Positions 34,113-62,675 of a stretch of 64,000 nucleotides of DNA are shown here, piece after piece. Position 1 is the stretch's first letter. Each line of letters starts with the position of its first letter. The stretch is from an uncultured Clostridia bacterium (GTDB taxonomy: Bacteria > Bacillota > Clostridia > TANB77 > CAG-508). The stretch is taken from contig CAMZHI010000003.1 of NCBI GenBank assembly GCA_947306755.1, positions 6,489 to 70,488 of the forward strand, given 5' to 3'. The translations under genes were made by a program, and so were the position numbers. Under the pieces are notes generated by a model that had not been told where the DNA came from, did not search any database, and worked only from the letters and a program-made list of their open reading frames with translations.

Positions 34113-34129
34113 GACCTTCGGGTTATGAG
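34113..34129. repeat. 17-bp direct repeat GACCTTCGGGTTATGAG (tRNA-Met anticodon-arm sequence), candidate att site
   Basis: Identical to 62659-62675, where it is contiguous with the 3' end of a tRNA-Met. Mobile-element genes start immediately to the right. Confidence 0.7.
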
Positions 34130-51115: not shown

Positions 51116-52312
51116 TTGACTGGTAGTATTGAAAAGCATGGAAAGAACAGTTACAGATTAGTAGTATTTAAAGGCTATGATTTAGATGGAAAATCTATAA
51201 AACATCAAAAAACAATACACTGTAAAAATAAATCAGAAGCAAGAACAGAACTTGCAAAATACATTGCACAAGTAGAAAATGGATTTGTAGTTGATGGAAC
51301 TGTCCCAACATTTAAAGAATTCGTTGAAATATGGAAAAGAGATTATGGACTAAAAGAACTTGCACCATCTACATATAGCAGATATAAAGGAATGTTAGAT
51401 TCTAGAATTCTTCCCTACTTCGGACATTTTAAGTTAAATAAAATAAGACCTATTGATATTATGCAGTTTTACAACTTGCTAGATGAAGACACACAAATAG
51501 TTAGAAAGAAAAACAACAATGGAAAGAAAACAAGAAAGCCATTATCAAAGAAAACAATTTTAGAACATCATAGACTTTTGCACGCAATGCTAACTAAAGC
51601 TGTTTATTGGCAAATGATTGTAAATAATCCTGCAGAACGAGTGCAACCACCTAAAGCACCTAAACCAAAAAGAGATTGCTATGATGAAGTACAGACTAGA
51701 ATTCTAATTGATAATTTAGAAAAACTAACAGGTAATGACATCAAATACAAAGTTGCAGTTTTACTAGACATATTCATAGGTGCAAGGCTCGGAGAACTAG
51801 CTGGACTTGAATGGTCTGACATAGATTTAAAAAACGGAATTATCAGCATAAACAAATCAAGTCAATATTTATCTGACAAAGGAATATTTACCAAAAGTCC
51901 TAAAACAGAAAGTTCAATTCGTGAAGTCGCTATCCCCGATTTTATCGTTTCTTTACTTGAGGAATATAAGTTATGGTATGAAGAACAAAAATCGATTGTA
52001 GGCGATTTCTGGCACGATTCTGATAGGTTGTTTGTACAAGTAGATGGCAAACCAATTACACCATCAACAATTAGTAAATGGTTTGAAAAATTTATTAAGC
52101 AAATTGGCTTACCTGTTATAACATTTCACGGCTTACGCCATACAAATGCAACATTGCTTATAGCTCAACAAGTAGATGTAGCAACTGTATCGGCAAGACT
52201 TGGTCATGCGCAAATTACTACAACCTATAATTTTTATGTACATCCTTTAAAATCACACGATAAACACGCAGGAAATGTACTAGAAAATTTATTAGTTACA
52301 AACGCACATTAA
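51116..52312 (+). CDS. Tyrosine site-specific integrase
   Basis: N-terminal SAM-like/AP2-like domain. Catalytic region GARLGE...HGLRHTNATLL...LGHAQITTTYNFYVH (R, HxxR, Y). TTG start after AAAGGAGG. Confidence 0.9.
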   Translation: MTGSIEKHGKNSYRLVVFKGYDLDGKSIKHQKTIHCKNKSEARTELAKYIAQVENGFVVDGTVPTFKEFVEIWKRDYGLKELAPSTYSRYKGMLDSRILPYFGHFKLNKIRPIDIMQFYNLLDEDTQIVRKKNNNGKKTRKPLSKKTILEHHRLLHAMLTKAVYWQMIVNNPAERVQPPKAPKPKRDCYDEVQTRILIDNLEKLTGNDIKYKVAVLLDIFIGARLGELAGLEWSDIDLKNGIISINKSSQYLSDKGIFTKSPKTESSIREVAIPDFIVSLLEEYKLWYEEQKSIVGDFWHDSDRLFVQVDGKPITPSTISKWFEKFIKQIGLPVITFHGLRHTNATLLIAQQVDVATVSARLGHAQITTTYNFYVHPLKSHDKHAGNVLENLLVTNAH

Positions 52313-52519: not shown

Positions 52520-52533
52520 TTTGGTTGCGGGGG
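52520..52533. repeat. 14-bp direct repeat TTTGGTTGCGGGGG (3' end of tRNA-Met incl. CCA), candidate attL of the inner element
   Basis: Identical to 62629-62642. Sequence to its right is unrelated to a tRNA. Confidence 0.7.
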
Positions 52534-52655
52534 ACAATTCTTTGTATTTCAAGTAGTTTTGAGTGATTTTATAGATATTTTATTTCAATGATTTTTAATC
52601 TATTTTAAGAATCCTATGAATTAAAAATTTATACGAGGTATTTTAAAATATTCTT

Positions 52656-52678
52656 ACACTGCATTAATTACTGCATTA
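52656..52678. promoter_or_regulatory. Two direct copies of ACTGCATTA, candidate arm-type integrase sites (left end)
   Basis: ACACTGCATTAATTACTGCATTA. The same motif pair is in the same orientation at 62548-62569, next to the second integrase. Confidence 0.5.
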
Positions 52679-52777
52679 CTTCTTTAAGAAGCGGCTATTA
52701 TTTTAAGTACAACTTGCCTAGTACCTCAAAATATGGTATTTATTAAATATCAAAGGTCGCAGTAGGAGGTGTAGAAA

Positions 52778-53032
52778 ATGGATCAAGCTTTAAATGATTT
52801 TATAAACAAAAGGATAGACAGCAATTATGACAGGTTACGACAGGATAAAGAATGGAGTACAACTAATGAAGAATATAAGAAATTCTATAATGAACTGTAT
52901 CACAAATTACCAGTTGAACAGAAGGAGCAATTAGATAACATTATCGACTTGAAGAATAACCTAATAGATTATGAAAGCGTCTTTGCATATAGAATTGGTA
53001 TAAATGATATGTTAAAGTTATTTAAGTTATAA
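52778..53032 (+). CDS. Small mobile-element protein (family of 34701..34991)
   Basis: 84 aa with an AGGAGG RBS, followed by the hairpin AGAGTGT...ACACTCT. Confidence 0.45.
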   Translation: MDQALNDFINKRIDSNYDRLRQDKEWSTTNEEYKKFYNELYHKLPVEQKEQLDNIIDLKNNLIDYESVFAYRIGINDMLKLFKL

Positions 53033-53211
53033 TTTTATTTTTGTCTGCTATTATAATAAACCCTAATGAGAGTGTATCCCTTAACACTCTTATTTTTTAT
53101 GTGCAATTACAATTATAAGCACACTTTGAAAACTGCGTAAAATAATGGTATTTATTATGTTAGATAGTTATATTTTATGAACTAATCAATATGAATAAGG
53201 AAGGTGTTAAG

Positions 53212-53613
53212 ATGTCAGTTATTACAAAGCAAGAGATTAATACCATTAATGGTAAATGTAACAACGGTTGGTACTTGGATGTACAATATTATATGTTTCA
53301 TAATGAGAGGACCTTAATTAAGCAAATACCTATTGATGATGAATATTATCTTGAATTTAGGTTGTGTTACAGCAATAGAAAGCAAATAATAGTCCATATA
53401 AGCAAGTTTCGTAAAGAACCTAACAAGAATTATGCTGTAACTACTGGAATGGGTAAAACGGCAATTATAGATGAAACAGAGTACAAGAGAAAGAACATCA
53501 ATAATCTGTTTACATTTACAAACAGACTAACTAATCTCAAGTTAATGGATTTAAACAACAAGACAAAGGTTAATAGTGGCTATGGGTTAATTATGCCTAG
53601 TGAAGAATTTTAA
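53212..53613 (+). CDS. Hypothetical protein
   Basis: ORF 53191..53613 with start at ATG (MSVITKQ) after AAGGAAGG. Confidence 0.4.
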   Translation: MSVITKQEINTINGKCNNGWYLDVQYYMFHNERTLIKQIPIDDEYYLEFRLCYSNRKQIIVHISKFRKEPNKNYAVTTGMGKTAIIDETEYKRKNINNLFTFTNRLTNLKLMDLNNKTKVNSGYGLIMPSEEF

Positions 53614-53635
53614 TGTATGAAAGGAGATTAGAATA

Positions 53636-53905
53636 TTGTCAGCAGAGATTATAAAGGATATAAATACAAATTATGTTGATGGGCCTAGTACAATGCCAAG
53701 GAAATATTTTTTGTTGAATGATAGGATAGAAGTATTACATACTCAATTAAGACAGAGATTAAAGAGTAAGAAGGATAAGAAGAAACTGGACAAGTTAGTA
53801 GATATAATTTCACAAACAAATTCTATGGAATGTGATGAACAATTTGTATCTGGATTTGTGTTAGCAACTCGCATTATGTCAGAAGTATTAAATTATAAAA
53901 TATAA
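53636..53905 (+). CDS. Small mobile-element protein (family of 34701..34991)
   Basis: 89 aa, TTG start after AAAGGAG. Central LRQRLKSKKDKKKLDKLVD and C-terminal FVSGFVLATRIM. Confidence 0.4.
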   Translation: MSAEIIKDINTNYVDGPSTMPRKYFLLNDRIEVLHTQLRQRLKSKKDKKKLDKLVDIISQTNSMECDEQFVSGFVLATRIMSEVLNYKI

Positions 53906-54127
53906 TCAAATAAGAATATAGCAGATGGATCAAGTCTATCTGCTATGATAATATTATGCTATATTGCTTGTAGGACTTTACTGTTGCCACTGTGAAGCAT
54001 TATAATATAATAGGTTGAAAATTTTTCGCCATATAGTACATATATCTTAAAATCAAAGTTCGTTACTTTACTCATATTTAATAATAATTACTTGTAGATA
54101 GCAATGACTAATATTTACTATAAGAAT

Positions 54128-54355
54128 TTACTCTCTTGTTAGCAAGTCAGATATATCACATTCTAGTGCTTCGCATAACTCATCTAAATCTTGATATAAA
54201 ACAGACTTATTAACTTGATTTATCATATTCTGAAAATTAGTATAGTTCATTAGCTTTTCGCCCTTAATAGCACGAATATTATTTAATTTATTGAATAAAG
54301 CATATCTTGTATAACCTCTGCTCTCTAATAATGAAATAACATTTAATTTCAACAT
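54128..54355 (-). CDS. Small Cro/CI-type HTH transcriptional regulator
   Basis: 75 aa. The LLESRGYTRYALFNKL...ELCEALECDISDLL pattern is that of short XRE-like regulators. Confidence 0.55.
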   Translation of the reverse strand: MLKLNVISLLESRGYTRYALFNKLNNIRAIKGEKLMNYTNFQNMINQVNKSVLYQDLDELCEALECDISDLLTRE

Positions 54356-54561
54356 AGTTGTAACCCCTTTGTATTAATATTTGAATACAGTCTATAAAAT
54401 ATTCACAAAAAAGATAACTCTTTTAAGAATGCTCACTTAACTATTTACTTTTTGAATATTTTATGGTATATTGTATTTAATAATTTCAAAAAATGTTGTA
54501 TAATGTCATTAGAGATAAAAACATTAAAATTAATAAAAAATTACAAAGGAGGAAATGTATT

Positions 54562-55989
54562 ATGTTTTGTTCGAATTGTGGTAAAGAAGTTTCAAATAGT
54601 CAAAATTATTGTGAATATTGCGGAACTAAAGTAATGAAAAATAATATCAATAAAGATACCAGTATAAAGTTAGATGAATTAGAAATAAATAATGTAATTA
54701 AAACAAAGGCTAAAAACAATACATCATCAAAAGAAATTCAGAAAAATGTAATAAGAATTTCTTTTACCAAGTTTATACTACTAGTAGTGTTATTTGTGTT
54801 GTTTTTTATAATACTAATATCAATTTCAACTTTAAGTAGAAATAGTAAGACGGTAAGTCAAAATAATTCAATAAATATAGAAATCCCAAGTTTTAATAAC
54901 AATATTAATATTTCTGGAATAACACAAGAAGAACGACAAGAATTAACATCAATATTAAAGAATTTTAATTCCTCAAGATATAATTGTAAATTGACAGATA
55001 AAATTGGAAAATACTATCAAGATTTCGGGATGTTTTACACTATATCAGAGTCGAGAACCAATATAAACGAAAAGGGTTATATCGATGAATTATACTATAG
55101 TCTTATTGATAAAAAAAACAATGAAAATAAAAGTATAGAAGTAAATTTAACTTATACTTTTGACAATAAAGGTAGACCTATTAAAATCCGATTTGATGAT
55201 ACTAAATCTACTGTTATTGAATATAACGCTTTTTCAAAAAATGCTTTATACGAAATATCTTACTTAGATAACGGAATGATAGAAACTATAAATTGTACTC
55301 TATATAAGGATAATACAAGAGTAGAGTATCATTTTTCTTATAAGGAAAATAATGACTATGACAAGATTAAAGTATTATTTTATGGTAAGGATTATGTTAA
55401 AGATGCTAATCATCTAATATCATTTGACTATTTAGATAACAAAATTTTGATGTCCAAAGGCGAAGGTATAAAATTTTATTTTCAAAAAGATGATATGATA
55501 AGTCAAAATAGTCTATCAGAATACTTTAATACACTGTTATTTCAATCGTTTATAGAAATAGATGAAACAACAATAATTAACCAGAATCGAATTCCATTAT
55601 TGGAAATATTCTTTCCATTTACAATAAAGAAATCACTTTACTGTAAATACATAAGTGAATTTTATTATTCATATAATGAAGATGGACTTGAAGATATGTC
55701 ATATAATAGCGACTATACAATAAAATCAAAATATGATTATATAAAAGCTGATAACAAGCTAATGAAGATTGAAACTAATTATAAAGATAATAATGTCACA
55801 AAATCATATACCATTTTTACTTATAATGAACATAATCAAATAGAAAGTATTTATGAAGTAAATAATATTGAAGATTTTAAGAAAAGTGCCAACACTAAAA
55901 AGTATCTTATGCAGATTTGGGGTAAAGATAGTAAGTTCTTAAGTAGAGAGTTTTATACATTTTGCAGTAATTATCGGAGAAGTTATTGA
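54562..55989 (+). CDS. Zinc-ribbon, single-pass membrane protein with large extracytoplasmic domain
   Basis: ORF 54493..55989 with start at ATG (MFCSNCGKEVSNSQNYCEYCG) after AAGGAGG. TM is FILLVVLFVLFFIILISI. Confidence 0.55.
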   Translation: MFCSNCGKEVSNSQNYCEYCGTKVMKNNINKDTSIKLDELEINNVIKTKAKNNTSSKEIQKNVIRISFTKFILLVVLFVLFFIILISISTLSRNSKTVSQNNSINIEIPSFNNNINISGITQEERQELTSILKNFNSSRYNCKLTDKIGKYYQDFGMFYTISESRTNINEKGYIDELYYSLIDKKNNENKSIEVNLTYTFDNKGRPIKIRFDDTKSTVIEYNAFSKNALYEISYLDNGMIETINCTLYKDNTRVEYHFSYKENNDYDKIKVLFYGKDYVKDANHLISFDYLDNKILMSKGEGIKFYFQKDDMISQNSLSEYFNTLLFQSFIEIDETTIINQNRIPLLEIFFPFTIKKSLYCKYISEFYYSYNEDGLEDMSYNSDYTIKSKYDYIKADNKLMKIETNYKDNNVTKSYTIFTYNEHNQIESIYEVNNIEDFKKSANTKKYLMQIWGKDSKFLSREFYTFCSNYRRSY

Positions 55990-56391
55990 CTCATACACTA
56001 CTGAAGATTGCTATGCTAATATTGTTTTGATAGAAGATAGCAAATATGATAGCGTATACAAAGAACTATCAAAAGATGATAGAATTTCAAGAATAATAAA
56101 TGATAGACAAACATTAGAAGAATATCAAGAAGGTTTAAAAGAAGGGTTAGATTAGTCAAAGAATGATTAAAATATAAAAAAAAAACTATATCATTTATTG
56201 TTTAAATTGTGAAAAAATATCAGATATGATAGCATTTATAAAAATTGATCAAAAACGCTAAAATTTCAAATGTAATAACCAATAGACAAGCTTTAGAATA
56301 TTATCAAGAAGCGGTTAGTTTAAATTTTGATTAAAAATTGTAATTGAAACTTGTAAAGAGTTATCAAATAAAAATATTAGGAGGAATGAAA

Positions 56392-56610
56392 ATGAAAGAG
56401 AAGAAGAAAATACCTTTATGGGCTGATATTATAATTGCAGTGGTAATTGCTGGAATAGTAATTATAGTTTTATCTACAATTAATGATTATCAAAGAGAGA
56501 AAAAGAGAAAAATGTATTATGAACAATATACAAGTAATTCAAGCAACATTAATAATGTAAATTCTAATAAAACTAGAGTTTTGGATCCATCTACATATAC
56601 ACCAGAATAA
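56392..56610 (+). CDS. Small single-pass membrane protein
   Basis: ORF 56344..56610 with start at ATG (MKEKKKIPLWADIIIAVVIAGIVIIVL), 7 nt after AGGAGG. Confidence 0.45.
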   Translation: MKEKKKIPLWADIIIAVVIAGIVIIVLSTINDYQREKKRKMYYEQYTSNSSNINNVNSNKTRVLDPSTYTPE

Positions 56611-56679
56611 AAATCCTAAAATTGAGTACAAATGGCGATAGTTTTATATTTCTGATATTTAAATAATGGGTGAATCACA

Positions 56680-57855
56680 ATGGAAATTAAAACTTATGGA
56701 GCTAATAAAATTGGTGGATGTATAACAGAAATTAGAAGCGGAAACACTAGAATAATTTTTGATTATGGGAATAATTTAGATGATTCTCCTCAAATAGACC
56801 TTGAAGGCTTAACCTATGGAACACCACAATATAATGCAGTGTTTATATCACACTACCATCTCGACCATATAGGCGCTATTGATAGAGTATTGAAAGATAT
56901 CCCTATTTATATAGAGAAAACAACAAAGATACTTTATGACATTATCTGTGATTTTCAAAGTAAACCAAGAGTCAATGTAAAAACATTTGCTTTTAATAAA
57001 CCTATTACTCTTTTAAATGATATAAAGATTACACCTTATTTGGTGGATCACTCTGCTTATAATTCCTGTATGTTTGTAATAGATGATGGCAAAGAAAAAG
57101 CACTGTATACGGGAGATTTCAGAAACAACGGATATACTGGTAATAGATTACTACCTACATTTGAAGCAATAGGAAAAGTGGATTACCTAATTACAGAAGG
57201 CACCAATATTACAAACGATAACACTCATATTATTAGAAAAGAGAGTAGTCTTGTAAATGATTTTGTAAGAATAATACAAAAATATAATCAAGTCCTTGTA
57301 TTGATGTCTGCATCTAATATTGATAGAGTTACAACACTATTAAAGGCTTGTAATAAAACAGGCCATACTTTAATTGAAGATATTTATATGGCACATCTCA
57401 CGACAACAATATTTAAGACTGATAATGTTAATGTTCCTAATCCTATAAGTTACGATAATGTTATGGTTTATAAGCCTATTTATTTTAACAAGAAGGACAC
57501 AGAGGTTAAGGATAAGTATTTGAACTGTTTTAATGATAAGAATAATAGCGACATGTTATATAAGCCGTTCATTATGAATATTAGAACAAGTATGCTAGGC
57601 GATTTAAGGATGTTTAAGAGAAAGCATATCTTGACTAATTCTTGTCTAATTTATTCAATGTGGGATGGATACAAGCAACAAGAAGATATAAAGAACTTCT
57701 TAAAGTCTGTTAAAGCACTAGGTATTACAATAATAGAAACAGATATACACGCAACAGGACACGCAAGTAAAGAACTTCTAAAAGAGATTATAGAAATTAC
57801 TGGCTGTTCAAAAGTTTATATTATTCATTCTAATTTAAAAGCTAATAAAAATTGA
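56680..57855 (+). CDS. Metallo-beta-lactamase-fold hydrolase
   Basis: The HxHxDH motif SHYHLDHIG, later DHSAYNS and TGDF motifs, and a C-terminal HATGHAS. Confidence 0.7.
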   Translation: MEIKTYGANKIGGCITEIRSGNTRIIFDYGNNLDDSPQIDLEGLTYGTPQYNAVFISHYHLDHIGAIDRVLKDIPIYIEKTTKILYDIICDFQSKPRVNVKTFAFNKPITLLNDIKITPYLVDHSAYNSCMFVIDDGKEKALYTGDFRNNGYTGNRLLPTFEAIGKVDYLITEGTNITNDNTHIIRKESSLVNDFVRIIQKYNQVLVLMSASNIDRVTTLLKACNKTGHTLIEDIYMAHLTTTIFKTDNVNVPNPISYDNVMVYKPIYFNKKDTEVKDKYLNCFNDKNNSDMLYKPFIMNIRTSMLGDLRMFKRKHILTNSCLIYSMWDGYKQQEDIKNFLKSVKALGITIIETDIHATGHASKELLKEIIEITGCSKVYIIHSNLKANKN

Positions 57856-58230
57856 TACAAAGATTTTTTGAAATGAAAAATATAATGAGATATTATTCGT
57901 AGTTAAAGATGGAAGTGACAATGTTAAAATTATAAAACTACTCTTATATCGGCCGAAAGATATAGTTTTATAAATAAAGTGTCAGAAATCATAGGAATTA
58001 CAATATCATATTGTACCTATAACTTCCTCGAGAATTGGAAATAAAAATATTCTTAATAATAAGAAGAAAGAAAATATTATTAATATTAGTTATGCTACCA
58101 TAAATAATAATTTTATCAATAATGATAATATTAATGTTTATGCTATTGCCAATGGTAATATTAAAGAGAAAGAGAATTTGAAGTTTTACGATAAGATAAA
58201 AAAGAATGATATACTAATGATAAAATGATA

Positions 58231-58284
58231 ATGCTATGTAAATATATGAACGTAAGATTCCAAAATAAATACAATGCACCTATC
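58231..58284. repeat. Direct repeat copy 1 in the non-coding region
   Basis: ATGCTATGT-AAATATATGAACGTAAGATTCCAAAATAAATACAA.. About 85 percent identical to 58571-58640, which carries a 16-nt insertion. Confidence 0.7.
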
Positions 58285-58570
58285 ATTAATTAAAATGTAA
58301 AATAAAGTGTCGGTTTATTAAAAACAATACACATATAAGTACAATAAAGATTACATATTACAAAGTTAACACAAACTATATTAAGTAAAAGTCAAACTGG
58401 TAAAATGTTAAATTAAAAATTAGTTAGAGATTAAAGTTATAACTCTAATATAGAAAAGTATAAAATAAATAAAATATAGATTAAAATGAAGTTAATCTAC
58501 ATAATGTTGATAATTAAGATAATAAAAATAAAGTAGATAGAAAGAAAGAGAATTATATTAGTTTAAAGGT

Positions 58571-58640
58571 ATGCTATGTTTAAGATGATGTTAAGTAAAT
58601 ATATGAACGTGAGTTTCCCAATAAATACAAAACATCTATC
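58571..58640. repeat. Direct repeat copy 2 in the non-coding region
   Basis: ATGCTATGT[ttaagatgatgttaag]TAAATATATGAACGTGAGTTTCCCAATAAATACAA.. Confidence 0.7.
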
Positions 58641-58747
58641 CTTGAAACATAGTAATACCCACCAAAGATACGCCAGCTAATGCTAAAGCCTAATGTTAAA
58701 GCTAAAGTCTAAAGATTAAGTTTAATCAAGCTATTAAGAAAGCACAC

Positions 58748-58806
58748 CACTATTCCACTATGCTACTAAACCACAATATCTGGTATGGTGGCATAGTGGA
58801 ATAGTG
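58748..58806. ncRNA. Strong 16-19-bp hairpin, candidate structured RNA or protein-binding palindrome
   Basis: CACTATTCCACTATGC ... GCATAGTGGAATAGTG are perfect 16-bp arms with a 27-nt loop. A terminator-like hairpin follows 12 nt downstream. Confidence 0.35.
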
Positions 58807-58817
58807 AAAGGCTAAAT

Positions 58818-58840
58818 AAAAGAGCTAAAATAGCTCTTTT
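58818..58840. terminator. Bidirectional rho-independent terminator
   Basis: AAAAGAGCTA AAA TAGCTCTTTT with T-runs on both strands. Directly after the stop of 58845..59447. Confidence 0.6.
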
Positions 58841-58844
58841 ATTT

Positions 58845-60005
58845 TTAATTATTTTCATCATAAAGCCTTTTCCAAAGATAGTTTTCAAAGGTCATACTAT
58901 TATTAATAAATTTGTCGTCCTTATCTGCAAGAAAAGTTTGATAAATGCCCAAACATCTATTATTATCAAAACTAGAATTAGAATAATAAGTACTTCTAAC
59001 TCCTTTAAAAGAATATCTTTCTGACCTATAACCTAACGCTAAAATTTGTTTACCAAATTGAGCATTGCAAACTTCTTTATAATTGTTTTCTTGACACCAT
59101 TTACAATATTCTGAATAATATTGAGTTTTTCCTATAAAAGTATTTATTGGAAACAGAGTACAAAATTCCAATACACTATTACATTGCATAAAATAATTAT
59201 GTGTTTCTAATTCTATATTGCTAGGAATTGTAAATTTGCCATTCTTTAATACTCTATAAAATGCTAATATTGATTTAGTAGCAATAATTTGTAATGCAAG
59301 AGGTCTGCATAGTTTATTACCTATATCAATATCACGATTACCGGTATTGTCTGTAAATGTAGCATTAAAAGGAATTACAACAAATCGATCTGTTATGTGT
59401 AGCCCTGTTTCTTTGAAATTAATTGATTCATTTATAGAAAATAACATCGTAGTGCATGATTTTAAATAATCATTTCTTCCTTTAGCCTCTAATGAAATAG
59501 GTTCACCTGATATTATTCTTGTTATAATTGATGTATTAATGTATTTAGGTTGCTTTTGGTCTTCTGATATGTTAACTGTACATCCGTTTTAATTTCTCAA
59601 TCGTGTTTTTGCTTCCAGATTTATTCCCCGATAATTGTTCTAAATGTTCATGTGAACATTGATTTCCTAACATTGCTTCTAATATACGAAATATTTTAGA
59701 TTTTCCATTTCTTCCGATTTCCGCTTAAATATAAATGCTTTATTTAGTTTTGATGTTTTAAACAATGAATATCCTATTACTTCATAAAGTAATGTTTCAA
59801 TTCCTTTATCACTGCAACTAATACTATCAAAGAAATAATTAACAAGTTCTAGTTCCCTTGAATTATCTAAAAGTACATTTATATCATTATAAGGTACACT
59901 CAATTTTGCAATTATATTAGATAGCTTATCAATTTCTGTTTTATAATTATTTATTTGTATTATTTTTTCTTCTTTATTAAGATTTTTTATTTCTGTTAAA
60001 GTCAT
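58845..60005 (-). pseudogene. P4-family primase / D5-like helicase gene disrupted by frameshifts and stops
   Basis: ORF 59679..60005 ends at ..KAFIFKRKSEEM, where a Walker A is expected. GNGKSKIFRILEAMLGN is readable in another frame around 59640-59700. ORF 58845..59447 carries the C-terminal primase-family region (FVVIPFNATF...YSEYCKWCQENNYK). Confidence 0.6.
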
Positions 60006-60316
60006 TATCTTTTCCCCCTTAAATTATTTTTTGAGCAGTCTAGCAATTCATTTCTCTTATCTCTCTTTTGGCTATACCAGTTAATAATCGAATTTATTTC
60101 TGCCACTTTAGTTTTGCCTACGTCTTCACTTGGGAAGCTTGGAAGTAGGTAAATTTTTCTTGCAGTGGCTAATGAACAATTGCGAATTTCTGCAAATTCC
60201 TTTATGGTTACAAAATGTATCATTTTAGATTTATCTTCCATCAATTTAAGTTTCTCTAGTAGCTCATCTAATTTTCTTATGTTTAAATCAATGTCAGTAT
60301 CGACATAAAAAGTCAT
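60005..60316 (-). CDS. Small HTH (excisionase/AlpA-like) DNA-binding protein
   Basis: ORF 60005..60349 with start at ATG (MTFYVD) after AGGAGGTG. HTH is VTIKEFAEIRNCSLATARKIY. Its stop overlaps the primase start (TAATG). Confidence 0.5.
   Translation of the reverse strand: MTFYVDTDIDLNIRKLDELLEKLKLMEDKSKMIHFVTIKEFAEIRNCSLATARKIYLLPSFPSEDVGKTKVAEINSIINWYSQKRDKRNELLDCSKNNLRGKR
60023..60049. repeat. 27-bp inverted repeat, left copy
   Basis: ATTATTTTTTGAGCAGTCTAGCAATTC is the exact reverse complement of 61213-61239. Confidence 0.95.
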
Positions 60317-60516
60317 ATCAGACACCTCCTTTCTTACTGGACTTGACATTTTATTTAAAATGTAGTATTGTATAGGAAATCTTACAGTAAGTACGTTTCC
60401 TACAAGGAGAATATTACCACATATTTATTCTAAAAAACGAATATAGCCTAAAAGGATTTAATTACCATAGTTTAATAAAAAAATTTCATATAGGAAATGA
60501 AAGGAGATAACGAATC

Positions 60517-61188
60517 ATGAATGATGAAAAAAAGGCAAATAATGAAAAGTTAAAAAATGACTTAAAAAATACTTTTGCTGACATATTAGATGATTTAGTA
60601 GAAGATGAAAAAAAGAAAACAGGACTAGGTAACAATCAAATTGCCGACGAAATAGGAATTGGACAAGGACAATTAAGTAAACATCTAAATGCTCAAGCGG
60701 AGTTAAAAATAAGCAGTTTAGTAAAAATCGCAAAATATTTTGGGGTTAGCACTGATTATCTGCTAGGTTTAACAAAATTAAAAAGTCCTAATGAAGATTA
60801 TAAAACTGTTCACAAAGTTTTGAATTTATCAGATGGCTCTATTAAGAATGTTAAAGCAATGAATAAAAACAATGATGGATTTGCCTATGTATTAAATCTT
60901 CTGCTAGATAATACAGAAGAAACATCAAAGTATTTCAAAAGTTGCATATTAAATATTATTAAATACTTATCTGATATGTCAAATGCCGATGCAGAAGCAA
61001 ATGATAGTTACGATGATTATAATCCATTTTCTATAGAAAGTTTAGAAAAAGATATAGAAGAAGGAAATAACCCTTATAAGATTAAGAATGCAAAAGAACT
61101 AGAAGCTGTACATCTATTTAGAATAACTAATATTACAACAGCATTAGCTAAAAAAATAAAAGAAAAATATCTATCAGATATTAAATAA
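60517..61188 (+). CDS. XRE-family HTH repressor-like protein
   Basis: HTH is NQIADEIGIGQGQLSKHLNAQAELKISSLVKIAKYFGVSTDYLLG. 223 aa. Confidence 0.7.
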   Translation: MNDEKKANNEKLKNDLKNTFADILDDLVEDEKKKTGLGNNQIADEIGIGQGQLSKHLNAQAELKISSLVKIAKYFGVSTDYLLGLTKLKSPNEDYKTVHKVLNLSDGSIKNVKAMNKNNDGFAYVLNLLLDNTEETSKYFKSCILNIIKYLSDMSNADAEANDSYDDYNPFSIESLEKDIEEGNNPYKIKNAKELEAVHLFRITNITTALAKKIKEKYLSDIK

Positions 61189-61212
61189 AAAAACAGGGAA
61201 TATTTTTTGGAC

Positions 61213-61239
61213 GAATTGCTAGACTGCTCAAAAAATAAT
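61213..61239. repeat. 27-bp inverted repeat, right copy
   Basis: GAATTGCTAGACTGCTCAAAAAATAAT. Lies between the repressor gene and the integrase gene. Confidence 0.95.
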
Positions 61240-61324
61240 CCCTTTGAAAATCAAGAGTGATTTTCTATACTTAATTATAGTATAAAAAATCATTCTTGTA
61301 AAGCAAAAGGAGTGATTTTTTATT

Positions 61325-62539
61325 ATGGGAAGAAATAGAAAAAGAACGAAACAAGTTGGAAATGGCGAAGGCTCATTATATTACAGCGATACTCTATCTT
61401 GTTGGGTATTTCAATATTATGATACAAACGGAAAAAGGCAAACTATGAAGCAAAAGAAAAAGGAAAGCACAAAGGATTTTAAAGCAAGAGTTACAAAGGT
61501 TAAAAATAGTCTTAATAATGGAACTTACATAAGTAAAAGCTCTGAAACGGTTGTATCTCTTGCTAAACATTATATCAAATTAAAATATGAAGATGGAACA
61601 ACAAGTGCTAGGAGTTATGGGCGAGAATTATCTACTTTAAAACAATTAGAAAAAACTTGTTATAATTTTTGTTATCTGCCTATTCAACAGGTAACAATAA
61701 AGCATATAGAAGATGCAAAAAAAGAATTAAAGATATACTCAAATTCCGTTATTGATAAAATATGGCAGATGTTACACAAAACATTTAAAATAGCTTGTTC
61801 TCCATCAAGAAAAATATTACTGTATAATATAATGGAAGATATAAACTTGAAGAAACCTATATCAAGTACACCAAGTAAAAAAGTAAAGCCCTTGACTAAA
61901 AATGAATGTAGACGATTAACGCATATTCTTGACAATGAAGAAAGAAATCATAAATATAGAAATCTATTAAAACTACATCTTATAGCTGGTTCAAGGATTG
62001 GCGAAACCCTTGCTCGTTCTGAAAATGACTTTGATGAAGAAAACAACACATTTAATATTTGGAATACACTAACTCAAGATGATAAATATCATGTTATTTG
62101 GAGTGAACACACAAAAACATACAATAAACTTTCTGGTGTAGATGAAGGACAAAGATTTTTGCCACTAGATAACCCTATATTTGCTGAAATAGCTGATATA
62201 GTAAAAGAAGAAAAAGCAAAAAAGGTAAAAAGTATAAATAATGTTCATAATGTACTATTTTGGGATTATAAGAATGACACTTTTATTTCTCCTAAAGAGA
62301 TTAATTCGTGGTTATATAGACTTGAAGCGAAATATCACATATTAGATAAGGATGATGGCGAAAATTTGACAACACATAGAATAAGGCACTATGCTATAAC
62401 ACATTGGTCTGAACTAGGTATTCCTAAAAGGGTTATTCAATATCTTGCAGGACACGTTGAAGGAAGTACAATAACAGATGAAGTTTATATCGAAACATCA
62501 TTTGATTTTGTAAAAAATACATTGTGTAAAATATCTTAA
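61325..62539 (+). CDS. Tyrosine site-specific integrase
   Basis: Catalytic region GSRIGE...HRIRHYAITHW...LAGHVEGSTITDEVYIE (R, HxxR, H, Y). Ends 90 nt from the tRNA-derived repeat. Confidence 0.85.
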   Translation: MGRNRKRTKQVGNGEGSLYYSDTLSCWVFQYYDTNGKRQTMKQKKKESTKDFKARVTKVKNSLNNGTYISKSSETVVSLAKHYIKLKYEDGTTSARSYGRELSTLKQLEKTCYNFCYLPIQQVTIKHIEDAKKELKIYSNSVIDKIWQMLHKTFKIACSPSRKILLYNIMEDINLKKPISSTPSKKVKPLTKNECRRLTHILDNEERNHKYRNLLKLHLIAGSRIGETLARSENDFDEENNTFNIWNTLTQDDKYHVIWSEHTKTYNKLSGVDEGQRFLPLDNPIFAEIADIVKEEKAKKVKSINNVHNVLFWDYKNDTFISPKEINSWLYRLEAKYHILDKDDGENLTTHRIRHYAITHWSELGIPKRVIQYLAGHVEGSTITDEVYIETSFDFVKNTLCKIS

Positions 62540-62547
62540 AAAAAACG

Positions 62548-62569
62548 TTACTGCATACTTACTGCATTA
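62548..62569. promoter_or_regulatory. Two direct copies of TTACTGCAT(T)A, candidate arm-type integrase sites (right end)
   Basis: TTACTGCATACTTACTGCATTA. Matches the pair at 52656-52678. Confidence 0.5.
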
Positions 62570-62630
62570 AATAATAAGAAAAAAGATACATTAAATGCTG
62601 ATATTTTAAGCAAAATGTATCTTTTTAGTT

Positions 62631-62675
62631 TGGTTGCGGGGGTAAGACTCGAACTTACGACCTTCGGGTTATGAG
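62631..62675 (-). other. 3' 45 nt of a tRNA-Met(CAU) (anticodon loop to CCA), no 5' half, att-site remnant
   Basis: The minus strand reads CTCATAACCCGAAGGTCGTAAGTTCGAGTCTTACCCCCGCAACCA. It has a CAT anticodon loop, T-arm GTAAG-TTCGAGT-CTTAC, and an acceptor 3' strand plus CCA. Upstream sequence is the end of a protein gene, not a D-arm. Confidence 0.8.

Follow-up and report, generated by a model that had tools for sequence, protein, structure and literature searches.

The stretch of DNA analyzed in this study (the window, 64,000 nt of contig CAMZHI010000003.1 in assembly GCA_947306755.1) comes from an uncultured Clostridia bacterium. It contains an island of about 10 kb (52520-62642) with the layout of a tRNA-integrated, primase-carrying element resembling P4 or the phage-inducible chromosomal islands (PICI): an integrase gene at the end that adjoins a tRNA, direct repeats, a repressor gene, a small helix-turn-helix (HTH) gene and a primase gene. 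No capsid or terminase-type genes were noticed among the annotated open reading frames (ORFs) of the island. Two inverted copies of a 27-nt sequence lie in its regulatory region, one at the end of the HTH gene and one in front of the integrase gene, and are the subject of this work. An earlier reading of the same sequence (the original prediction) had taken them for the ends of a possible invertible switch. All features are listed in Table 1.

The two arms match at 27 of 27 positions and are separated by 1163 nt, a segment that contains two regulator genes and divergent promoters. A scan of the complete window with up to three mismatches found two copies of the 27-mer in total, and a 27-base inverted repeat did not occur in any of 100 dinucleotide-preserving shuffles. 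Both copies are also conserved in relatives. The original prediction was right about the perfect repeat, its non-accidental nature and the places of the small HTH, XRE and integrase genes. The left arm provides the last codons of the HTH ORF (ELLDCSKNN), reads GAAUUGCUAGACUGCUCAAAAAAUAAU on the minus-strand HTH-primase mRNA and lies 4 nt from the Shine-Dalgarno sequence of the primase gene (GGGGG, 60014-60018). As had been stated, the small ORF would survive a notional inversion, reading on as PFENQE followed by a stop codon; it would then end 64 nt before the ATG of the integrase gene (about 70 nt in the original prediction). The claimed translational coupling of HTH and primase genes holds insofar as the stop codon of the former and the ATG of the latter overlap (TAATG), but the primase gene is broken in the window. 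The HTH protein has only a weak PHROG match and looks excisionase- or AlpA-like by eye.

Table 1. Features of the island and its regulatory region, in coordinates of the window.
Feature	Position	Strand	Remarks
Left 14-bp direct repeat, TTTGGTTGCGGGGG	52520-52533		tRNA 3' end; probable left attachment (att) end of the island
D5/P4-type primase-helicase gene	58845-60005	-	DUF5906 in intact relatives; frameshifted around Walker A in the window
Small HTH gene, 103 aa	60005-60316	-	AGGAGG 8 nt ahead of ATG
Left arm	60023-60049	-	ATTATTTTTTGAGCAGTCTAGCAATTC; exact reverse complement of 61213-61239
Divergent promoter/operator region, HTH-XRE intergenic	60317-60516		Repeated TAGGAAA motifs; read from sequence
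XRE-family regulator gene, 223 aa	60517-61188	+	Convergent with the candidate small RNA
Candidate small RNA gene, about 85 nt	61183-61272	-	Stem-loop 1 (SL1) 61246-65; stem-loop 2 (SL2), terminator hairpin, 61196-242; U-run = A-run 61187-193
Right arm	61213-61239	-	5' stem and loop of SL2 in the candidate small RNA
47-bp palindrome (hairpin 2)	61252-61298		Between the candidate small RNA and the integrase start
Candidate small-RNA promoter	61274-61302	-	-35 TTTACA 61297-302; 17-nt spacer; -10 TATAAT 61274-279
Tyrosine integrase gene of the island, 404 aa	61325-62539	+	
tRNA 3' half, CAU anticodon loop (Met-like)	62629-62675	-	Adjoins the integrase gene; first 14 nt = right direct-repeat copy

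An alignment of the 175 nt that precede the integrase gene in 15 lineages showed that the right arm is embedded in a larger unit, which presumably represents the gene of a small RNA. On the strand opposite the integrase gene, the unit consists, in this order, of a promoter, about 7 nt, the 8-bp SL1, the large-looped SL2 and a run of five to seven U. No ORF is present within the unit. The candidate promoter of the window matches the consensus at 11 of 12 positions; its TTTACA box is invariant in the 15 lineages, its -10 box reads TATAAT in 14 of them, with L070 (TATACT) as the exception, and the 17-nt spacing holds in the lineages checked for it. The SL2 hairpin is composed of GGGAATATTTTTTG, 19-21 nt and CAAAAAATAATCCC, with the right arm corresponding to the loop plus one stem, and the U-run that follows overlaps the stop codon of the XRE gene. 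The hairpin is kept even in relatives without the repeat sequence of the window, its stems changing in step. A plus-strand terminator of the XRE gene formed by hairpin 1 was ruled out since the plus side has no U-run.

The pairing pattern gives the unit a strand. The 86-nt version of the window folds into SL1 and SL2 with -22.7 kcal/mol (z = -5.74). Across the alignment 96.8% of the cells are paired, versus 49-66% with the partner slid, and four pairs are doubly changed. For the small-RNA strand we counted 17 G-U cells and one mismatch in SL1 and 22 G-U cells and eight mismatches in SL2; the corresponding numbers for the opposite strand are 0 and 18 (SL1) and 4 and 26 (SL2), a summed G-U asymmetry of 39 vs 4. 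The U-run is likewise present on the small-RNA strand only. This G-U pattern fits an RNA transcribed from the minus strand, not a DNA palindrome or a plus-strand RNA. From the upstream-of-integrase alignment we derived a covariance model, which recognizes 21 related loci upstream of an integrase gene with 60-109 bits (106 bits for the window). A search of 59900-61400 with Rfam cmscan (E<=10) returned no family, only sub-threshold matches of the palindrome to microRNA models; C4 and IsrK, the P4-type immunity RNAs of Rfam, gave no match in this interval at the same threshold.

Several observations were made alongside. One distant and weak match to the covariance model (L037 1569-1659, 33.8 bits; L numbers denote related loci and contigs) is located upstream of an integrase gene of a different clade, and a 20-nt complement (TGCGGAACGACACACATTAT, at 2968) was found inside the 5' part of the HTH-like gene of that locus. 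Pairs of small RNA and target may also exist in more distant islands, with the target placed differently. L081, a Logan contig (k=31, 1785 nt) from the lineage of the window itself, ends 13 nt past the XRE stop codon, just before the terminator hairpin, and several other contigs likewise end near this hairpin; such ends may reflect a coverage drop at the palindrome.

The second line of evidence comes from the joint variation of the two arms. At least five arm sequence types occur among the relatives, and both arms change together over 14-27 nt. Type 1 (TTGCTAGACTGCTC) is shared by the window, L002, L012, L015, L021, L030, and L063. Both arms read AGAGTTTGCGGAACTGATAAAAAATA (26 nt) in L013, AGTTGTCAGGCTAC in L014 and, with one or two mismatches, AGTTATCCAGACTTGCTC in L028, while L031 has the type of the window with an identical 1-nt insertion in both arms. 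The predicted duplex of small RNA and target is stronger for cognate than for non-cognate pairs (-46 vs -27.5 kcal/mol for L013, -40 vs -30 for L014, and -42 vs -30 for L028), and a scan of the whole locus for pairing with the small RNA gave the 3' end of the HTH gene as clearly the best site. In the window, L002, L063, L012, L013, L028, and L031, the distance from the end of the target to the start or ribosome-binding site of the following gene is 0-30 nt; the next ORF of L014 begins about 110 nt further beyond the target. The HTH homologues keep the repeat-encoded LLDCS and then diverge. Between arm types the peptide tails encoded by the target arm are wholly different (ELLDCS, ESLRN, SCQAT), indicating a constraint on the nucleic acid and not on the protein. 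Since the type of repeat is unrelated to the clade of the integrase, we favor an RNA-RNA code over a recombinase site.

Other arm combinations were also encountered. L008, L009, and L029 have an HTH arm of the window type (L008 6271-6288), and the small RNA at L008 5042-5134 has another loop, GTCGCCAAACATAC, which is common to L017 and L032. The integrase of L008 is 99% identical to that of L030, whose pair matches. L015 (5872-5954), L016 (532-614), and L021 (near 6274) carry a diverged inverted copy of the 5' part of the small RNA (SL1).

Based on these data we propose, with a probability of about 0.6, that the two arms represent a small antisense RNA gene and its trans-encoded target in an island of about 10 kb that is integrated at a tRNA and carries a primase gene. 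In this model, an RNA of about 85 nt would be transcribed from a strong promoter that lies immediately ahead of the integrase gene but on the other strand, at times when the XRE side of the switch is active. The 5' stem of SL2 and its exposed loop would then pair over 27 nt with the end of the HTH ORF in a leaky HTH-primase transcript. Pairing could block both the completion of HTH translation and the coupled initiation at the primase gene, or it could trigger cleavage or termination; either way, the replication module would be kept silent as long as the repressor side is active. The small RNA would also be a cis-antisense RNA to read-through from the XRE gene into the integrase gene. The variable loop would set the specificity, enabling tandem or competing islands to avoid cross-talk. 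The circuit of the window may be decaying, as its primase gene is already a pseudogene.

A number of points weigh against this proposal. The whole antisense case is built from sequence, from which we infer that the small RNA is transcribed, that it pairs in vivo and what this does to regulation. A loop of 19-21 nt is unusually large for an intrinsic terminator, and a perfect complementarity of 24-27 nt exceeds most seeds of trans-acting small RNAs. Mismatches flanking the core show no G-U bias (L012, L015, L028), the arms of L008 are mismatched, and gene conversion could be what keeps the arms identical. Seven lineages (L017, L018, L019, L020, L027, L032, L055) have the small RNA but no trans target was found, and a whole-locus scan gave no convincing alternative target in any of them. 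Because these seven carry the RNA without a detectable trans target, the ancestral role may have been purely cis, on the integrase leader. Finally, given the contigs with flipped junctions, recombination at the repeat may play a part too.

The orientation of the segment was surveyed among relatives. L002-L005 have the layout of the window (HTH gene running into the primase gene; XRE gene, repeat, integrase gene), and this orientation is found in more than 100 contigs, including all long ones in every lineage. It is seen in 24/24 contigs read for the lineage of L063 and 24/24 for that of L030. Exact-protein look-ups for the lineage of the window itself retrieved three to four contigs, all in the window orientation; these have no power to reveal a flip. 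A search with the integrase N-terminus yielded truncated fragments, pseudogenes and contig ends, one additional normal locus (L069) and no flipped one, and none of the Logan contigs (k=31) is in the flipped orientation.

Four contigs of 576-2850 nt from three lineages do show the flipped orientation, with one junction each: L006 (ERZ827440), L007 (SAMEA3449302), L033 (OLWB01017304), and L071 (ERZ27261099). The HTH gene of L006 and L007 passes through the repeat into the integrase gene. Two HTH proteins are identical up to LLDCS and continue with KRG and NIPL, respectively, their contigs showing the two layouts. L006 and L007 are identical and have the same starting base, and thus probably derive from one sample assembled twice. 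L071 contains an HTH-repeat-integrase junction; its overlap with normal contigs is 27 nt long, and to either side of it the identity is 100%. L033 contains the converse XRE-repeat-primase junction with a 24-nt overlap; compared with its normal counterparts L063-L066, the identity is 100% on the primase side and 99.7-99.9% on the segment side. On the switch-segment side of the repeat, flipped and normal contigs are about 99.7-100% identical, and past the repeat L006 is 80.6% identical to L002. The alternative HTH tails are not conserved: NIPL in L006, NNPLENQE in L071 and, as predicted, NNPFENQE in the window. The alternative orientation was hence encountered among relatives as the predicted junctions, but on short contigs with a single junction against more than 100 unflipped ones.

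These contigs have a second possible origin. All were assembled with metaSPAdes or MEGAHIT, with an initial k of 21 that is smaller than the length of the repeat (24-27 nt). In a de Bruijn graph, the repeat R is traversed in one and the same direction by the HTH-R-primase and XRE-R-integrase paths, so that a wrong join there generates exactly the two flipped junctions. A chimera requires a coverage gap before the second junction is reached, which a truly flipped genome does not. The contigs stop 32 nt (L033), 190 nt (L071), and about 560 nt (L006) short of that junction, and the k-mer coverage of L006 is 1.77. Assembly chimeras account for the four flipped contigs at least as well as real inversion, and we consider it doubtful, though far from negligible, that any of them is real.

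If real, the flipped contigs could have arisen by occasional, non-programmed inversion, i.e., RecA-dependent recombination or template switching across the 24-27 identical bases, giving rare and probably defective variants. The same four contigs would be its products, and it is compatible with the small-RNA reading. An extra homology of about 45 nt past the repeat on the HTH side of L015, L016, and L021, corresponding to 5' sequence of the small RNA, reveals an old rearrangement between the sites. From this SL1-like sequence beyond the repeat an ancestral duplication of at least 60 nt follows, and the homology shows an old exchange of DNA between the two arm sites. Such events should be very rare, however, and a flipped clone would have to dominate a sample to be assembled; every divergent lineage is found in one orientation, the flipped state apparently being selected against, and low-coverage assembly chimeras are a simpler source of three to four short contigs. 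We therefore think that inversion of this kind is unlikely to be the explanation.

Quite unlikely is the programmed invertible switch of the original prediction, in which a site-specific recombinase (the integrase or a host enzyme) flips the 1.16-kb segment with its two regulators. Such a flip would, equally improbably in our view, swap the promoters driving the integrase gene and the primase operon. A tyrosine recombinase gene does adjoin a perfect repeat, the ORF is kept in either orientation, recombinant junctions were found in three lineages (L006/L007, L033, L071), and co-variation of the arms is likewise predicted by the homology requirement of a crossover site. So much of the prediction stands, namely the repeat and the flipped contigs; the right arm was found within a promoter/stem-loop/U-run unit, however, and the arms co-vary without dyad symmetry. 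The shared core of 17 nt has neither dyad symmetry nor a pair of half-sites, and the co-variation extends over about 14-26 nt, far above the 2-8 bp needed for a crossover. The HTH arm of L002 and L063, which belong to lineages with flipped contigs, has nothing in common with the hairpin stems. Nor does the repeat type follow the recombinase: that of the window occurs with integrases of three clades that are 31-51% identical, the loops of L008 and L030 differ despite 99% identical integrases, and the second arm is absent from loci with integrases 84-93% identical to those of L002 and L063. The tRNA-targeting integrase is the sole recombinase in the island, its att repeat is unrelated to the arms, and nothing points to a function as invertase. 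More than 100 contigs, with all long and all Logan ones among them, share a single orientation, while the flipped contigs are short, lack the second junction and were built with a smallest k (21) that does not cover the repeat.

Two candidates related to this switch were rejected. A 238-aa serine recombinase (Resolvase domain) is encoded together with a DnaB_C fragment 2 kb past the integrase gene in L063 (8708-9424) and L067 (3736-4452) and probably belongs to a neighboring element; neither the window nor any other locus has it, which disqualifies it as the invertase. The repeat as a secondary site of the integrase was dismissed as well, since it has only the five bases AGACT in common with the att/tRNA sequence, by eye.

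The small-RNA and inversion readings are not mutually exclusive. The small-RNA gene and its target might serve, in addition, as the sites of crossover in a true and reversible inversion of the whole regulatory cassette, which we hold to be no likelier than the programmed switch. If true, the flip would fuse the excisionase-like HTH gene upstream of the integrase gene, place the primase operon under the repressor promoter and deprive the small RNA of its terminator, amounting to a DNA toggle between the maintenance and excision wiring of a mobile element. We rather regard the flip as an accident and not as a designed state, because divergent lineages share one orientation and because it would leave the small RNA without its terminator and the primase gene under the control of the repressor promoter. 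Very improbable, lastly, are protein-binding sites (operators of the XRE or HTH protein or arm sites of the integrase that loop the switch region): two identical copies flank divergent promoters and are conserved down to synonymous codon positions, but the core has no dyad symmetry, the sequence is wholly different among lineages with similar HTH proteins, one repeat type occurs with XRE proteins of three families, and the strand-specific G-U pattern, the promoter and the U-run indicate RNA.

Next to the small-RNA gene that we favor, hairpin 2 overlaps both the small-RNA promoter and a weak promoter-like site on the plus strand (TTGAAA-16-TATACT, 61244-271). Its arms vary jointly among lineages (CAAGAGTGA/TCACTCTTG, CAAAAAGTGA/TCACTTTTTG, CAAGAAATGA/TCATTTCTTG) without strand preference. 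It is possibly an operator over back-to-back promoters or a leader hairpin of the integrase gene. Considered as a part of the small RNA, it likewise showed no preference for a strand, and half of it sits in the promoter spacer.

The primase gene of the window falls into two ORFs (108 and 200 aa), and the residues corresponding to 97-140 of the intact 406-aa homologue, including Walker A, are found in another frame. The Walker A motif at the break is GNGRNGKS. The gene is broken at the same place in the L008/L030 lineage (pieces of 76, 68, and 224 aa) and intact in L063 (406 aa) and L012 (418 aa). The break could represent a recurrent hotspot of decay or programmed frameshifting. Just 3' of the pseudogene, a gene-free region (58748-58806) contains a 26-nt inverted repeat (CACTATTCCACTATGCTACTAAACCA / TGGTATGGTGGCATAGTGGAATAGTG; 88% complementary, 7-nt spacer) that could be a terminator or an origin-like element.

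A second tyrosine integrase gene (51116-52312; 398 aa, SAM-like N domain) is located just before the TTTGGTTGCGGGGG copy at 52520. Because this sequence recurs after a second integrase gene, at least two elements, the island being one of them, are, as far as these repeats tell, arranged in tandem at a single tRNA site. No intact tRNA is present in the 64-kb window, and the arrangement suggests a tandem array at one tRNA with the intact copy outside the window. A 17-nt piece of the anticodon arm of the same tRNA (GACCTTCGGGTTATGAG) was seen at 34113-34129. The relatives are found in uncultured Clostridia genome bins from human and animal guts and in gut metagenomes. Their common gene order is integrase, XRE, HTH, primase, a metallo-beta-lactamase-fold gene, a small HTH_26 gene and zinc-ribbon genes, and they adjoin intact genes for tRNA-Leu, Arg, Tyr or Gln (next to His), depending on the integrase clade. 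The cargo of the island that is kept in relatives (56680-57855, 52778-53905) includes a 391-aa metallo-beta-lactamase-fold protein, two DUF6809 proteins, a 75-aa HTH_26 protein and zinc-ribbon membrane proteins. The precomputed matches of the metallo-beta-lactamase-fold protein in relatives include a faint one to the Anti-Pycsar protein Apyc1. Scans of IMG/VR with the HTH profile and the SL1 motif found no related element, the single match being an unrelated contig with an RNA-dependent RNA polymerase.

The proposed circuit has counterparts in well-known elements. The CI RNA of P4 pairs with seqA and seqC ahead of the replication genes, and relatives of P4 show heteroimmunity. In plasmids R1 (CopA/CopT-tap-repA), pT181, and pIP501, a short stem-loop RNA pairs upstream of the replication gene with its loop setting the specificity, and in plasmid copy control translation of the replication gene is coupled to a small upstream ORF. 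Regulation by antisense RNA (CI RNA, seqA) has been described for satellite phage P4 (PMC3632133). The island resembles P4 as an integrative element with a P4/D5-type primase and a small RNA predicted to pair with sites in the replication-gene transcript; in both cases RNA and targets look like inverted repeats in the DNA and relatives carry different matched sequences. In contrast to P4, the RNA of the island is related neither in sequence nor in Rfam, would have its own promoter 1.2 kb away beside the integrase gene instead of being processed from the target leader, and would act in a Gram-positive host on translational coupling at a ribosome-binding site, as against a shown termination. With the plasmids it shares the predicted stem-loop RNA, the target just upstream of a coupled replication gene and the loop specificity. 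The plasmid RNAs are cis-encoded, opposite their target, however; in the island the target would be an inverted copy at a distance of 1.2 kb, and what the RNA would face in cis is read-through from the repressor into the integrase gene. No sequence relationship was found between the island RNA and the antisense RNAs of P4 or R1.

The locus is also reminiscent of invertons (fimS with FimB/E, RecV of C. difficile, the R64 shufflon and intragenic invertons), with inverted repeats around a promoter-bearing segment, an adjoining tyrosine recombinase gene and one arm inside a coding sequence whose C-terminus a flip would recode. Unlike invertons, it has no recognizable recombinase half-sites, its repeat type does not track the recombinase clade, and its flipped orientation is known from assembled contigs alone. 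In the integration-dependent immunity of mycobacteriophages, the recombination site lies in the 3' end of a regulator gene and recombination alters the C-terminal tail. There, the event is attP integration and the tail change has a shown function; here, it would be an inversion and the alternative tails are not conserved. The inverton surveys that were searched reported prophage inversions only at tail-fiber-type genes (PMC5903667, PMC9881135). Our searches of inverton surveys and of the phage literature turned up neither an invertible lysogeny or immunity cassette nor a description of the island RNA. Control of mobile elements by antisense RNA is thus known as such; what would be unusual here is a trans layout that mimics an inverton.

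A trans-encoded small RNA and its target are indistinguishable from an inverton in raw sequence, and inverted repeats of 21-30 nt can yield flipped contigs in low-coverage de Bruijn assemblies. Assembly-based inverton surveys should therefore control for both small-RNA/target pairs and mis-joins. If the small RNA is real, it represents an uncatalogued RNA family with at least 21 related loci in bins of uncultured gut Clostridia and in gut metagenomes. The replication control of small tRNA-integrated islands would thereby gain an RNA layer whose specificity loop is hypervariable and co-evolving, and the logic of P4 and of plasmid copy control would extend to Gram-positive gut elements that share one tRNA as a tandem array and need to distinguish self from neighbor.

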